A DNA stretch of 63,900 bases, the filler included, from Bonamia ostreae (Eukaryota): NCBI GenBank assembly GCA_040357525.1. It is 18 parts of 18 records of this genome, joined end to end, with 100 filler letters (N's around TTAATTAATTAA, not from the genome) between each part and the next. Parts side by side here need not be neighbours in the genome. Positions count along the whole stretch, not along the records: positions 7,159 to 10,633 come from JBDODL010000497.1; 17 more parts are not named here. One strand, written 5' to 3'. A program made the position numbers and the translations under genes. Below, one piece after another: positions 5,810-12,056 of the stretch. A model generated the notes under the pieces. It saw nothing but the letters and a program-made list of their open reading frames with translations, was not told the DNA's origin and did not search any database. The first letter of the stretch is position 1. Each line of letters begins with the position of its first letter.

Positions 5810-7058
5810 TCAATTTATCCATTTTACAGAAATCTGAGCCATTTTTAACAAATCTTCTTCACAGACTTTCTTCAACACTTTAATAAGCAACATTCTCAAA
5901 ATCTCTTTTGAATGTTAAAGTTTAAAATCCAAAAAATTAAAACAAAATAACAAACTTTTTAAAAAAGGTTTATGTTGAAATCGAAGATTTTTCTTGAACA
6001 TAAAAAATTTTTTAGCCAAATTTTCCAAAATTTTGCGCGAATTGTCATTAATTTTTGTCATATTTGCCAAATTTGGATTTAAAGAAAATTTACTTTTATA
6101 ATTTTTTCGTATTAAAAGGCGATTTTTGTTGTTTAGATTTTGAATAGAATAGCCGCACCAATTTATTGTTTGTTCGTTTTTTAATTGATAAAATTTTGAT
6201 TTTTCGTTTATTTCAAGTTTTAATGATTTCAAACTTTGATATTTTTAATTATTAAAAAAACTATTTTAAAATAAATTTTAAAAATTGGTTCAAAATATTT
6301 TCGCCGTTGGCAAAACAGATCATATCGTCAACAGAACGATAATATTTGATTTGACTAAATTTTAGAGCATTTTTGTCTAGATTTTGCAAATACAAATTAG
6401 CCAAAATCGGGGCTAGAATTGAGCCTTGCAAAACTCCTTTTGTTTTTGTGTACCAATTCTGGCTTAATTTTCCAGATTTTTTAGAGGTGAATTTTATTGT
6501 GTTGGCAAAAATTGCCCTTTCAAATTGAATTATTGCGTTTTCTCTTGTCATTGATTTTTCGTTCTAAATAAAATTTTTGTTAATTAATTTAATTTTTAAC
6601 AAAATTGTTTTTTAATTTTTTGATAAAATTTATTTAATAAAATAGGTTTTTTAATTTTTTAATAAAATTTTTGTTATTTAGTTTAATTTTTAACAAAAAC
6701 ATAAATTTTGACGATTTCAATTTTGTTAATCTTGTCTAAAATATTTTTAATCATGGAAAAATCGTCCTTCTTGTTAGAACAAACTATTTTTCGAATTTTT
6801 ATAAATTTATCTTTATTTATTTTCTTTATAACGTTCAATTTTTGTATTCTATAAATTTTCTTTAATTTAAAATTTAGCTTTTTTTAAATAATAAAATTTA
6901 ACATTTTTAAAACATATTATTTTGTAAAATTTGGCCTTTTAAATGATCGAATTTTTTTGTTTTAAAAGGTATAAAAACATTTCGCAGATTCTTTTTTACA
7001 AAATCAAATAAAATTTGTTGATCAATATTATCAAAAAAATTTTGAATATCGATTGTAG
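5810..7058 (-). CDS. TERT: Telomerase reverse transcriptase, 3' part (RT motifs A-E plus short C-terminal extension)
   Basis: TIDIQNFFDNIDQ (motif A), YTKTKGVLQGSILAPILANLY (B'), YYRSVDDMICF (C), INWCGYSI (E); interrupted by GT-AG introns. Confidence 0.8.
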
Positions 7059-7158
7059 NNNNNNNNNNNNNNNNNNNNNNNNNNNNNNNNNNNNNNNNNN
7101 NNTTAATTAATTAANNNNNNNNNNNNNNNNNNNNNNNNNNNNNNNNNNNNNNNNNNNN

Positions 7159-9079
7159 TTGGTATCAAAATAAAACCACAAAATAAAAACGACATTGTCC
7201 TTCTCTTTATTGACATATTTTATGACAGAATTTGTGAATTTTTGCCAACCAAAGTTTTTATGCGAATTTGCTTTGTGCGCCTAAACCATTTTGAATTTCA
7301 AAACTTCAACGGTTAAAACTGAATTGAGCAAAAGAACGCCTTCTTTGGCCCATTTTTCTAAGGAACCGTCTTCCCAATTTATTTTGGCGTTGACGTCGTC
7401 AACTGCTTCTTTAAATATGTTTTTCAACGAAGGAGGCAAACTAACGCCTTTTTGGACAGAGAAACTTAAGCCGTGCGCTTGGTTCTCTTCGTGATAGGGA
7501 TCTTGTCCGATTATCACGACTTTTAACTTTTATGTTGATCGAAAAAAAGTTCAAAACATTATTTAATGGCGTTAACTCAAACGCAGAATAGACGGATTTT
7601 AACGGCGGATAAATTACGCTGTTTTTTGAAGAACCGAATATTTTTATTTCTAAATCTTTAAAATATTTTTGCTGAAATTCATTTTTAAAAAAATTTTGCC
7701 AATCGTTATCGACCAAATTTTGCAAATTTTTATTCGATTCGTTTTGCAAATTTTTTGATTTATTTTGCAAATTTTTTGATTCGTTTTGCAAATTTTTTGA
7801 TTCGTTTTGCAAATTTTTATTCGATTCATTTTGCAAATTTTTGTTCGATTTATTTTTCTGTTTTGTAGCGAATGGCAGTAATTGCTGTTTTGCCTTTCTC
7901 TTTCCCTTTTTTGGGACTTTGTCAAAATTTGCAGTTTTCTCAAAATTTCCTGGCAAATCTATTTCCATGACGATAGGGACATGGTCACTCCCGAATACAT
8001 CTGAAGCGACCCGAACGCTTTTCGGCGCGTCGGATAATGAAGGGGGTACAATAAAATAGTCCAACCTCCATCCTCTGTTTTTGACTCTATTACTTTAAAA
8101 AATTTAAATTTGGCTTTTTTGGGACTAAATTTATTTGTGTTGGAAAGCTAAATATTGTGATTTAGACAACTTCCCGAGATAGGACCAAAATGTCATTGCT
8201 TTTTCTCGTTCCTCGGGATAGAATTTTCGGTAAATATCGACAAAATTTTGTTCTTGAAAATATTTTGTAAAATCTTCTCTTTCGTAATCGGTGAAGCCGG
8301 CAGATTTAGAGCGGTTCTTGTTTGTTTCGCCGTCGTAGACATCGTAATCGAGATAGGCTACGTTCAAATCTCCCGTCCAAATAAATGGTTTTTCTTTCTG
8401 GTTTTGTTTCGATAGAATGTAAAAAGCAAAAAATATTAAAAAAATGAAAATTTGATAAAACGTAAAAAGCAAAAAAATATTAAAAAAACATAAATTTGAT
8501 AAAACTTAAAAAGCAAATATTTTGATAAAATGTTAATAAAAGCAAAAAAAAGTGAAAATATTATAAAAATTAAAAAAAACATTAAGTTTTAGTAGAAAAT
8601 TTCTCATTAGTTCATTCCAATTACGTTTTCGTTCCATAAACTTTAGCTTTTCGCCTGCATTCGGGACATAAGTGTTCACCAAATAAAATTTTTCGAATTC
8701 TAAAGTTAAAATTCGTCCATCGCCAATCTGTTTTAAAAATAGTAAATTTGAAAACATCTCCAAAAGATTCTTCGACGACTTTGACCGGTTCATATTTAGA
8801 CAAAATGCCAACACCGGCGTAGCCCGCTTTATGAGAACAGTCGTTCCAGAATATTTTGTACTTTTTATCGATTTCAAAAGGGATTTGGTCCAAGGTACAT
8901 TTCGTCTCAGAAAGGCACAAAATGTCGGGATCTTCCTTTTTGAAGTATGGCAGAAAATGTCCTTTTTTGACACAGGCTCGAAGACCTGCAACGTTCCAAC
9001 TGCAAATTTTAACAAGTGTATTTTTCTCGATATTAATCATTTGGCTAATTTTAGAAAAATTAAAAGTAGCCTTTATCAT
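7159..9079 (-). CDS. ExoIII/APE1-family AP endonuclease fused to family-1 uracil-DNA glycosylase, 3' truncated
   Basis: [43 protein letters not shown], then in the same exon IYPP..., followed by [36 protein letters not shown]. Confidence 0.9.
7714..7860. repeat. Coding 21-24 nt tandem repeat (NES(N)KNLQ linker)
   Basis: ttttgcaaatttttt(att)gattcg repeated about 6 times in frame. Confidence 0.85.
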
Positions 9080-9850
9080 GAAATATTTTTAAAATCGATT
9101 TGTTTATTAAATGTGTTAAATGATTACTAATTTTAACAGAATTGCTAAAATTTACAAAATTTTATCTTGCGTTGTCCTAAATACAAATTGGAGTGCTTTT
9201 ATTTTTAATGCCAAATTTTAGTTTCCAACATCTTTATTTTACAAAAAAGCAAATTTGAATCACAAAATTGCCAATTGTCTAAAAATAATAGAAAATTAAT
9301 TTTTTGAAAATAAAATGGGAAATTTTAAAATATTTTGTGAAAACACTTCACCCAAAAACGTTTCTATTCCGTTAAAAATTTTTGGTTCAAAGACAGTAAT
9401 ATTTTAAATTTGACCGGAAAAAATATTTCAAAAACGGCACTTTGTAAAAAATTGCTAAAATTTTAAATTTGTCAAAGAGTGAACAACAAATTGCATAATA
9501 AATTTTAATATTACAATATTGAAAAAATAGCAAAATTTTGCAATAAATTTTTTTAATGTTAAATATTATGTACCATTTTATTTGTAATTAAAAAGATTAA
9601 CGCGCATATTTTTCGGAGGGCGTCTTTGATAGAATTTTGATTATCAAAGTAAATTTCCAAAATTAATCATTTGTTAAATTTACTCAGTTTTCCCAATTTT
9701 GTCAATTTTTTGCTCGCGTGACAAAATAAAAATTTGCTATAACATTTAAACCGAAATAACAATATGTTAAATTTTACCCAAAAACAATATATTAAATTTT
9801 AGCAAATTTTAGCAAATTCGATTTTAATAAAAAATTAATAACAAGCAGAA

Positions 9851-10633
9851 ATGAATCCAAACGAAATCGATCCTTCGACCATTTTTATTTCAGACATTAA
9901 ATCTAAAAATCCATTATTAATTAGTCTTTGTGTCGACCATTTTGAAACTCTTTCTGCTCTTGTGGGCCCCGAAAAAACAAGTTTTTAATAAAAAACATTT
10001 TATAAAAAGAAAAACTTTTCACGGAAATCAACGAAATGATCGATTCTGTTAATATAACGCATTTTAAATTCGATTCTGGCAATTACGAAAGCCAAAAAAT
10101 AATTATTTCTATTCAACGACTAGGTTTCTCAATAAAATTTAGCCAAAACGATCGATCGATCGTTCATAAATTTCGTCGGCGGCTACCAAAACCTCAACTG
10201 TATTTTCAATTTGTTGGAAAAAATGTTGCGGTTTCCAGATTTCGAAGTTCGAAAAGTTTAAAAATGAAATTTGATAGAACGCGACAAAATCGATAAAAAC
10301 GTTTTTGGTGGCAACAGAAGAAAAGTTATGCAACAAAGAAATAATCGTTCAAGAAATTCTAAAACTGCTAAAATCGCTTAGTTTGGATTCACCAACGACA
10401 CCATCGAAACTGGCAGCGCTGAAAATTGTGAAGCCATTTTCTAAATTTCTCTTTGGAATTTACAAAAATCCCCAAAATATCGAAATGGGTTGTGACAACA
10501 AAGTGAATTGTCACACCGTCAATTCTCTATTGTTCCAATCAATCAACGACCAATCTTTTTTGGTAAGAAATGAAGCCGTTGAAGTTTTAAGTTTCTACGA
10601 TTAAGTTTTAAGTTAAAGTTGCGTTTTGTGTGA
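9851..10633 (+). CDS. HEAT-repeat protein, divergent PP2A scaffold A-like, 3' truncated
   Basis: MNPNEIDPSTIFISDIKSKNPLLISLCVDHFETLSALVGPEKT and DQSFLVRNEAV resemble PP2A-A repeats. Confidence 0.55.
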
Positions 10634-10879
10634 NNNNNNNNNNNNNNNNNNNNNNNNNNNNNNNNNNNNNNNNNNNNTTAATTAATTAANNNNNNNNNNN
10701 NNNNNNNNNNNNNNNNNNNNNNNNNNNNNNNNNTAAAAAAAGATTTCAACAAAAATAAAAAAAAAGATTTCAACAAAAATAAAAAAAAAAGATTTCAACG
10801 AAAATATAAAAAAAAGATTTCAACAAAAATATAAAAAGATTGTTCAAAAAAAATAAAGCCAATTCAGAGATCCGTCAAA

Positions 10880-11650
10880 ATGGGCAATATTCCGTCAATA
10901 AGAGAATACAAAAATTTTGTTCGTGACCAAAAAATAAACAAGAACAACGTTCTAAAGCCAAAGTTCCCAAAAAGCGAAGAACTTGAAAATTTTGTCAAGA
11001 CAAACGAATCTTCGAAATCAAGTAAACACAAAAACTCAAATTATGAAGAAGAAAAGTTTTTAATTGAAATTTAGAAGCACTGATTTTGGTCAACGTAAAC
11101 TTTTAAATATTGTTGCGAATAACAATGCCAAAAAATATAAAATTGATTCGTTTAACAAATCAAAAAACAAAAACGAGAATTTTAATACTCTTTCAAGACC
11201 GAACAAAGAAAGTCCAGTTGAAGCTTTAGATTTGTTGCAAATCGATGAAAGTTCTTTTTTAAATTTATCTTTAAATATCAATCCGAAAATAATTTACAAT
11301 GACATTTCCAATCAGAAAGTCCGAAAACAGAAAAAATGCCAGAAAGTCCGAAAATAGAAAATACAAAAGAAATAAAAGATTTGATAATATCAAAAGGTGG
11401 TTTATAATTTTAAACATTTAAAGCTACGGAACAAGCTCAGAAAAATATAACAAGAACACAAAAGGTCAAAAACACTTTAAAATTAAGCAAAAATGCAAAA
11501 ATTGGAGACGAAACAGCTCCGCTTCCAAACAGAAAAGTTATAAAGGAAACGGAGAGAAGATCGAGAAAAATGTTTTCGCTTGAAAGGGACACAAGAAGAG
11601 CAATTGTTGAAGCTAAACTGAGAAAAGTTTTAAAAGCAAAAAAATCTTAG
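10880..11650 (+). CDS. Hypothetical Lys/Asn-rich protein, multi-exon
   Basis: Successive ORFs ending ...RRAIVEAKLRKVLKAKKS*; no family recognised. Confidence 0.45.
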
Positions 11651-12056
11651 AAAGCCAGAGAGTTTTCCGATAGAATGAAGAAAAAGTAAAAGTCTAATTT
11701 TTAAAATTCCATTTTTTAGTTTTTAGACATTTTGCGATTTTAAATTGGATTTTTTAATCGAGTTTTAAATTAGTCCAAGAAAACGATAAATCTTCGAAAC
11801 AAAGCGCAGAATAACTACGCTTAGTTTTCGAAAAGATTGTCGTCTTAGCATTTTAACCATTTCTAGACCATTTTAACCATTTCTAGATAAGATTTAAATC
11901 TCTCTATTTTACATTTCATCTTTTATGAACAGAACTACGCTTCGTTTTTAAAGCTATATCGTTCTTGCATTTTAACCATTTTAGAAGATAAAGTTTATTG
12001 AAAGTAGTTTTTATATTGTCATTATAAAATAAAAAATTTATAGAAAGTTAGCCAAA

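Follow-up and report, generated by a model that had tools for sequence, protein, structure and literature searches.

A gene of the oyster parasite Bonamia ostreae that joins AP endonuclease and uracil-DNA glycosylase domains in one predicted chain

Introduction

Can the glycosylase that excises uracil from DNA and the endonuclease that cuts the resulting abasic (apurinic/apyrimidinic, AP) site be parts of one protein chain? This question is raised by the locus MHBO_001783 of Bonamia ostreae, a haplosporidian parasite of flat oysters. The locus lies in a 63.9-kb stretch of DNA (hereafter, the window), and a preliminary description of this stretch, made from its letters, presented it as a natural fusion of an AP endonuclease of the exonuclease III (ExoIII) type and a family-1 uracil-DNA glycosylase (UDG), UNG. 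In model organisms, UNG and AP endonuclease are separate, mutually stimulating proteins: UNG binds its abasic product tightly, the AP endonuclease stimulates UNG turnover, and both engage the same nucleotide. The hand-off of the toxic abasic product from glycosylase to AP endonuclease is a long-standing question of base excision repair (BER). We find it highly probable that MHBO_001783 is one nuclear gene encoding a single chain, in which the AP endonuclease is followed by a flexible linker of about 75-80 residues and UNG, and we propose that the two tethered domains act in sequence.

The draft assembly of B. ostreae is heavily fragmented (9,705 scaffolds, N50 of 1,417 bp, according to the main text of PMC11069148). 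The window comprises about 18 contigs of about 3.5 kb placed in falling order of length, with a G+C content of 31%, and the contigs are separated by spacers of the form N44-TTAATTAATTAA-N44 (for example, at 7059-7158 and 10634-10733). Since the window consists of joined contigs and is not one molecule, adjacency across the spacers is meaningless. The contig with the fusion gene occupies positions 7159-10633 (3,475 bases), and the gene is on its minus strand. NCBI lists MHBO_001783 as a "hypothetical protein", although the gene is already modelled there as a fusion with three isoforms (P0161, P0001, and P0162).

Results

A spliced transcript spans both domains

A stop-to-stop frame of 217 aa (7441..8094, minus strand) crosses the junction between the nuclease and UNG without a stop. 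It contains, in this order, the motifs GWRLDY and GSDHVP, the basic patch KKGKRKAK, the NES(N)KNLQ repeats, the N-terminal stretch of UNG, and AFELTP. The pieces upstream of this frame match Exo_endo_phos, and the downstream piece matches UDG. When the junction frame was used as a protein query, one match was obtained, the 492-aa product of MHBO_001783, with precomputed Pfam assignments to PF03372 and PF03167. The gene extends from the ATG at 9079, preceded by in-frame stops, to the contig end at 7159, exactly the interval given in the preliminary description. The claim made there that the ExoIII C-terminus and the start of UNG share one uninterrupted exon was also correct, since exon 4 is an open frame without a stop and is present as one piece in contig record 25 of the run X4 (Table 1).

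Four public sequencing runs were compared with the contig: the DNA runs X1-X3 and X4, labelled "RNA?", which was a guess. X4 yielded one contig of 1,469 nt with a word depth of 763, which follows the minus strand from 8993, within exon 1, to 7176 and carries both domains in one frame. This contig skips 183, 78, and 31 nt of the genomic sequence and omits a further 28 and 24 nt, while X1-X3 keep all five segments. All of them have GT..AG borders; four begin with GTTTT and one with GTTGT. Since five GT..AG introns are missing from the X4 contig and kept in X1-X3, this contig is derived from spliced RNA. The transcript across the junction, which had been suggested as a check of the fusion, was thus found, with both domains in one frame and all five introns removed.

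The spliced model gives a 525-aa open product, letter for letter identical to the NCBI partial isoform P0161, the last five residues of which (FYFDT) are read from the start of intron 6. Beyond 7176, the X4 contig leaves the genomic sequence and continues with 16 more in-frame letters, ...ILWGKQAQ, fitting the UNG consensus F.LWG..A..K. Therefore, intron 6 starts at this point and the gene extends past the contig; the chain has at least 520 residues and probably about 600 when complete. DNA contigs of X1 and X3 reach 296 and 273 bases past 7159, respectively. The other two isoforms, P0162 (449 aa, 31-nt intron kept) and P0001 (492 aa, 24-nt intron kept), end early and represent either annotation artefacts or real intron-retention forms. 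Of 18 single-base differences between the runs listed for the contig, seven are coding; five of these are synonymous, and the other two are S440G and F368L, the latter found in all four runs.

Table 1. Features of the fusion gene MHBO_001783 (positions in the window)
Feature	Position	Strand	Residues	Details
Exon 1	8756..9079	-	1-108	ATG at 9079; ExoIII/APE1 start (SWNV, LSETK)
Intron 1	8728..8755	-		28 nt, GTTTT..AG; absent from X4 RNA contig record 25, present in DNA runs
Exon 2	8581..8727	-	109-157	ExoIII domain, YVPNAG
Intron 2	8398..8580	-		183 nt, GT..AG; X4 joint 8397>8581
Exon 3	8171..8397	-	158-233	ExoIII domain, GDLNVA
Intron 3	8093..8170	-		78 nt, GT..AG; X4 joint 8092>8171
Exon 4 (junction exon)	7558..8092	-	233-411	ExoIII C-terminus (GWRLDY, GSDHVP), linker, UNG N-terminal helices
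Intron 4	7527..7557	-		31 nt, GTTTT..AG; X4 joint 7526>7558; retention shifts frame (P0162)
Exon 5	7305..7526	-	412-485	UNG catalytic core
Intron 5	7281..7304	-		24 nt, GTTTT..AG; absent in X4; retention gives in-frame stop (P0001)
Exon 6	7177..7280	-	486-520	RNA contig down to 7176
Intron 6 (start)	7159..7176	-		GTTTTATTTT..., cut by contig end; RNA contig has loose end at 7176
ExoIII/APE1-like AP endonuclease domain	7951..9022	-	20-280	Introns included
Inter-domain linker	7726..7950	-	281-355	Rich in N, K, Q, L, S
Basic patch KKGKRKAK	7888..7911	-	294-301	NLS-like, read from sequence
Tandem array for NES(N)KNLQ repeats	7691/7717-7856	-		Period 21, some 24-nt units (Tandem Repeats Finder)
Family-1 UNG domain, first ~72%	7177..7725	-	356-520	Introns 4 and 5 within
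NLS, nuclear localization signal.

The spliceosomal introns of the gene include very short ones, of 24, 31, and 28 nt, and all five begin with GTT and end with AG. Intron 2 contains a 44-nt tandem repeat (8411-8517, 2.5 copies) with a summed word depth of 121-450 in the DNA runs versus about 5-10 alongside and about 4 in the RNA-like run. The raised DNA depth occupies the bins 8435-8550, and intron 2 probably carries a piece of a dispersed high-copy repeat.

Both domains retain the visible catalytic motifs

The N-terminal half of the chain belongs to the APE1/ExoIII type. Pfam assigned residues 26-270 of P0161 to PF03372 (Exo_endo_phos) with 93.6 bits against a cut-off of 24.5, covering the profile completely (1-225 of 225). 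Chains of human APE1 were matched with E values of 4e-61 to 1e-60 (query residues 21-277 versus APE1 residues 60-316 of 318). The whole catalytic domain of human APE1/APEX1 and bacterial exonuclease III (Xth), represented by PDB entries 1DEW, 1E9N, and 4IEM, is matched with 43%-44% identity; compared to APE1, the Bonamia nuclease lacks the disordered N-terminal Ref-1/NLS arm and has UNG at its C-terminus. Its nearest relatives, such as P0002, have a SAP domain, which is missing in Bonamia. The nuclease columns invariant in eight fused proteins include N29, E58, Y128, D167, N169, D244, D269, and H270, located in the SWN, ETK, YVPN, GDLN, RLDY, and SDH motifs aligned to APE1. In the human enzyme, we take the catalytic and metal-binding residues to be N68, E96, Y171, D210, N212, D283, D308, and H309; the catalytic roles of the matching nuclease and UNG columns are assumed from the APE1 and UNG literature.

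An AlphaFold2 model built from a 60-row alignment had a mean predicted local distance difference test score (pLDDT) of 87 and a predicted template modelling score of 0.58, with both domains above 90 in pLDDT. All of the top 50 Foldseek matches were APE1, ExoA, or XthA, with target-normalized template modelling (TM) scores of 0.84-0.95, which supports the four-layer alpha/beta sandwich fold; for the APE1 matches, the scores were 0.85-0.88 and root-mean-square deviations 1.6-2.0. These data suggest that the N-terminal domain could function as a Mg-dependent AP endonuclease.

The C-terminal half is the beginning of a family-1 UNG. The match to PF03167 (UDG; residues 407-518 of P0161, 41.7 bits against a cut-off of 24.3) covers positions 4-89 of the 141 in the profile and stops there because the contig ends at 7159. 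Solved UNG structures were matched with E values of 9e-49 to 5e-43 (query 361-521 versus chain residues 6-165 of 223), and the N-terminal UNG helices encoded by the junction exon match solved UNGs on their own, with E of about 1e-3. The motifs GQDPYH (D420), GLSFSV (F433), LPPSL, LLLN (N479), and ILW(G) are present, and the UNG columns invariant in the eight fused proteins include D420, Y422, F433, and N479. Presumably, GQDPYH forms the water-activating loop, the phenylalanine stacks on uracil, the proline-rich stretch forms a loop, and the asparagine provides uracil specificity. The GQDPYH, F, PPS, and LLLN elements are common to the Bonamia domain and the family-1 enzymes human UNG and E. 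coli Ung (PDB 1AKZ, 1EUG, and 4UQM). The domain is predicted to be a uracil-excising glycosylase. The disordered N-terminal arm with which UNG2 binds PCNA and RPA is replaced in the Bonamia protein by the linker to the AP endonuclease. A tblastn search of the window matched the MHBO_001783 locus only and revealed no further UNG piece there.

A repeat-bearing linker connects the domains

The basic NLS-like patch and the NES(N)KNLQ linker reported in the preliminary description were recovered as KKGKRKAK and a 21-nt tandem array, respectively. Residues 281-360 include 18 N, 17 K, 9 Q, 9 L, and 6 S of 80. For residues 281-350, pLDDT values were 36-75, and this region is predicted to be disordered, with a long helix of low confidence over the repeats. 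KKGKRKAK may act as a nuclear localization signal. A canonical PIP box, Qxx[LIM]xx[FY][FY], was not seen upon inspection of the linker by eye, and KQQLLPFA does not fit it.

The array contains about 6.2-6.7 copies with 84%-88% matches, and the encoded NES(N)KNLQ repeat is heptad-like. The units at 7763-7783 and 7784-7804 are identical. The X4 contig lacks 21 nt at 7763, while X3 has 21 extra nucleotides at 7717, the frame being kept in both cases. The interpretation of these differences as alleles was dropped: since two units of the array are identical, k-mer collapse is possible, and the differences may reflect assembly collapse.

The same two enzymes are fused in other lineages

A phmmer search with P0001 against 1.84 billion representative proteins gave 18,803 matches at E <=0.001, the best 150 of which were listed. 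Both families were found in 3 of the 20 proteins scanned with Pfam among these best 150 of 18,803, namely P0001, P0004 (532 aa), and P0034 (485 aa). Among the best 120 of 2,480 matches of a profile search, both families were present in five proteins (P0001, P0287, P0288, P0289, and P0291), and among the best 120 of 631 matches of a region search, in two (P0001 and P0256). A phmmer comparison over the 373 proteins and 1,221 locus open reading frames (ORFs) gathered identified 23 chains with both domains: two from Bonamia, eight of the P0004/P0256 cluster (including those of the contigs L084 and L085), six of the P0034 cluster, three of the P0287/P0368 cluster, two of the P0288/P0371 cluster, and two from Vannella robusta. 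By Pfam, P0291 was one further two-domain chain. In all fused chains, ExoIII precedes UDG, except for V. robusta and P0291, where the order is reversed. The source names of the fused chains are automatic only ("uracil-DNA glycosylase").

The proteins of the four metagenomic clusters, which are of giant-virus kinship, have 481-533 aa, the same domain order as in Bonamia, 36%-41% overall identity, and complete UNG domains including HPSPL. Unlike the Bonamia gene, they have no introns and no NLQ repeat, and their linkers are about 5-40 aa long. V. robusta A0A7S4I9H6 (P0289, 646 aa; UniRef), annotated automatically only, combines family-1 UDG and ExoIII in one eukaryotic chain, but in reverse order and with a SAP domain between the enzymes (UDG 63-223, SAP 296-328, and ExoIII 387-626).

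The contigs L084 and L085 are AT-rich and intron-free, with dense ORFs on both strands that encode DUF5872, PAP2, GT25, PLOD-GT with GT25, and a DnaG-like fragment. On L081, a contig of a giant-virus metagenome-assembled genome (MAG), the region 10001-11828 encodes ExoIII (268 aa) and UNG (193 aa) on one strand, split by a 119-aa ORF that had no Pfam match. These separate proteins are the nearest relatives of the fused P0034, P0287, and P0371 clusters, and their arrangement represents either fission or a pre-fusion stage. None of the 80 viral loci from the profile scan had both domains within the locus span, and viral scans with P0004 and with a neighbouring ORF from L084 gave no matches. A search of the ESM Atlas with P0256 returned ExoIII clusters only (scores 0.81-0.82) and no lead to a fusion.

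The preliminary description did not recognise this architecture from characterised proteins. This statement stands insofar as we found neither a characterised member of the ExoIII-UDG type nor a paper describing one, but the architecture itself is present in the NCBI model, in the four metagenomic clusters, and in V. robusta. The fold and chemistry are classical, the fused gene is already in NCBI, and a relative in reverse order is in UniProt. Full-text literature searching, judged mainly from listings and the beginnings of abstracts, brought up no account of a natural fusion between UNG and an AP endonuclease. The words "glycosylase" and "fusion" do not occur in the main text of the assembly paper (PMC11069148), nor do intron, uracil, DNA repair, or endonuclease in PMC9329632.

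Other fusions of repair enzymes were met among P0163-P0165, P0127, P0178, P0296, P0177/P0189, P0168, P0101, and P0118. For UNG, the types observed were HhH-GPD(EndoIII)-UDG, Fpg/Nei-UDG, SAP-UDG, and dCMP/cytidine deaminase-UDG (in MAGs of Oscillospiraceae); for ExoIII, it was ExoIII-PolX (P0101 and P0118). An entomopoxvirus fusion joins AP endonuclease 2 and a nucleotidyltransferase of the Pol-beta family (as given in the part of PMC3493329 consulted). As in Bonamia, these fusions unite on one chain the enzymes for successive or related steps in the repair of uracil or abasic sites, but none of those named here pairs a monofunctional UNG with a hydrolytic ExoIII-type AP endonuclease.

Domain trees separate the Bonamia fusion from the others

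A phylogeny of each domain, proposed in the preliminary description as a check, was reconstructed: the Bonamia nuclease grouped with unfused AP endonucleases of Rhizaria and other eukaryotes, and UNG with unfused proteins, the UNG tree being poorly resolved. The nuclease belongs to a 15-row clade with a support of 99 (FastTree, 216 rows) and to a 16-row clade with a Shimodaira-Hasegawa-like approximate likelihood ratio test (SH-aLRT) support of 96 (IQ-TREE, 55 rows). All other members of this clade are unfused. One of them, P0023, comes from Cercozoa sp. M6MM, a free-living relative that was sequenced alongside the parasite (PMC11069148, main text). The best nuclease match, P0002, has 53%-54% identity and consists of SAP and ExoIII. 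The Bonamia UNG is a long branch and grouped with four unfused proteins, P0173, P0175, P0167, and P0187 (support 81-87).

The other fused forms occupy different places. The nuclease of the P0004 cluster is nested within giant-virus MAG loci from IMG/VR, both in FastTree (14-row clade, support 99, 216 rows) and in IQ-TREE (SH-aLRT 92-94, 55 rows). The P0034, P0287, and P0371 clusters form one clade together with L081, with a support of 95 in the nuclease tree (270 rows) and 81 in the UNG tree (166 rows). Both domains of V. robusta have tree neighbourhoods different from those of Bonamia. A tree holding eight fused rows together (Bonamia, four of the P0004 cluster, and three of the P0034 cluster) was 208 log-likelihood units worse, with p = 1.75e-66 in the approximately unbiased (AU) test. 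The 55 rows used in this test comprised 33 chosen ones and 22 taken at random from the rest, with six near-duplicates left out.

The domain trees led us to reject the idea that Bonamia obtained its fused gene from a giant virus. Common descent of the fused genes of Bonamia and of the giant-virus kin is contradicted by the separate clade of the Bonamia nuclease, by the AU test, and by the grouping of its UNG with unfused proteins. The fusion thus appears to have arisen within the parasite's own lineage from a eukaryotic AP endonuclease and a eukaryotic UNG, independently of the giant-virus and amoebozoan look-alikes. Since the domain trees separate the fused forms and a single origin is rejected, the fusion is recurrent and convergent, and the data may be read as at least four independent events: in Bonamia, in two giant-virus lineages, and, in reverse order, in Vannella/P0291.

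The nearest relative of the C-terminus of the Bonamia nuclease is P0135 (170 aa, 65% identity), encoded by a Logan contig of 2,299 nt. Beyond the SDH motif, it continues as a basic tail of about 60 residues, and it may originate from a related haplosporidian in which the gene is also fused.

Is the join real?

Several observations count against a working single-chain protein. None of the DNA contigs from X1-X3 extends over the complete array; they end, or overlap only slightly, at 7763-7804, so it is the deposited assembly that provides the DNA link between its two sides. The transcript link is one de Bruijn contig, and the RNA nature of X4 is deduced from its missing introns. The catalytic motifs of both domains had been described as looking intact, which is true for the visible ETK, GDLN, SDH, and GQDPYH; the C-terminal third of UNG, expected to carry the HPSPLS loop with the catalytic histidine and the intercalating leucine, is located beyond the contig end at 7159. 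Because the NCBI isoforms P0162 and P0001 stop early, part of the output may be nuclease only. As for the origin of the fusion, the group constrained in the AU test was chosen with the first tree already at hand.

The breaks at the array are what one would expect if an AP endonuclease gene ending in an NLQ repeat and a UNG gene starting in one had been merged by both the genome and the transcript assemblers. The Logan DNA contigs break at 7729/7771 to 7807 in X1 and at 7747 to 7807 in X3, two contigs of X2 overlap by 4 nt only, and in X1 the summed depth is raised in the bin 7739-7854 (33 versus about 10). Two of the units match each other perfectly over 42 nt, and the periodicity extends further than k = 31, which may have led to collapse. 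On the other hand, the array is imperfect, and the same 24-nt NESNKNLQ variant forms its outermost unit at either side, as for one array grown in place. The array unit was found nowhere else in the window (all three matches were within the array, with 0.15 expected by chance), and the frame is kept throughout. The nuclease domain is not followed by a stop, and the sole inter-domain methionine, M276, lies inside the last strand of the nuclease. The X4 contig agrees with the deposited assembly, and the same two enzymes are fused in other lineages. We therefore regard a chimeric assembly as very improbable.

Slightly less remote, but still unlikely, is that a truly fused gene serves as a co-expression device with separate products, intron retention yielding the nuclease alone and UNG being released through another start or by cleavage of the linker. 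The isoforms P0162 and P0001, with their introns kept, and a long, predicted-disordered, possibly protease-accessible linker are in line with this scheme. However, the sole abundant transcript contig retains none of the five introns (rare variants are lost in contigs), and no start codon follows M276 before the UNG domain begins. In other lineages, linkers are as short as about 5 residues (in P0371, ExoIII occupies positions 1-274 and UNG 280-442), and such short-linker fusions speak for conservation of the single chain as such. The least probable explanation is a working AP endonuclease with a decaying glycosylase tail. The location of the UNG C-terminus beyond the contig leaves room for it, and the gene losses of B. 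ostreae over-represent DNA-repair genes (PMC11069148, main text). On the other hand, the visible 165 residues are 50%-58% identical to the best-matching UNGs, GQDPYH, GLSFSV, PPS, and LLLN are kept, the transcript runs in frame into the WG..AQ motif, and none of the four run differences within the UNG-encoding sequence (part of exon 4, together with exons 5 and 6) interrupts the frame. A single chain with both domains thus remains the preferred reading.

Surroundings of the gene

On the plus strand of the same contig, short RNA-like contigs and one GT..AG joint (9360-9595, 236 nt) were found at 9182-9942; they point to a divergently transcribed neighbour gene starting within about 100-300 bases of the ATG of the fusion gene. 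The ORFs of this neighbour, 10006-10296 and 10278-10604, had no Pfam match. The adjoining contig of the window carries, on the minus strand at 6261-6563, a fragment of an RVT_1 reverse transcriptase (E = 1.3e-9), probably a decayed retroelement.

Discussion

The domain composition of the MHBO_001783 product suggests a tethered uracil-repair enzyme. The UNG domain would act first, flipping out and excising uracil and staying on the abasic product. The tethered nuclease, present at high local concentration, would then displace UNG and cut 5' of the abasic site, leaving a 3'-OH and a 5'-deoxyribose phosphate for gap filling. Because both domains target the same nucleotide, they would act in turn rather than together. 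A long disordered tether would fit such sequential action, with the linker supplying reach. KKGKRKAK could provide nuclear import, so that one localization signal would serve both activities, and the fusion would fix a 1:1 dosage of the two. Linker lengths vary across lineages between about 5 and about 80 residues, which suggests selection for the single chain rather than for a particular geometry.

A broader proposal can be made only tentatively, and we consider it rather doubtful: that the joining of UNG and ExoIII was selected independently at least four times, so that tethering offers a real kinetic or protective advantage, that the fused gene may be the sole source of both activities in Bonamia, and that retention of the 31-nt or the 24-nt micro-intron could switch between nuclease-only and bifunctional output. 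On this proposal, nature would have provided, in the fused proteins, an experimental test of the "passing the baton" model of BER.

With respect to annotation, the deposited models are named "hypothetical protein", and in two of the three isoforms translation ends within a retained micro-intron. Natural single chains exist in both domain orders and with linkers of about 5 to about 80 residues, and they would be ready constructs for measuring how tethering affects the speed of repair and the shielding of AP sites. For the parasite, the repair gene set of which is reduced according to the main text of PMC11069148, the gene would mean that short-patch uracil repair has been kept and compacted in an AT-rich genome.

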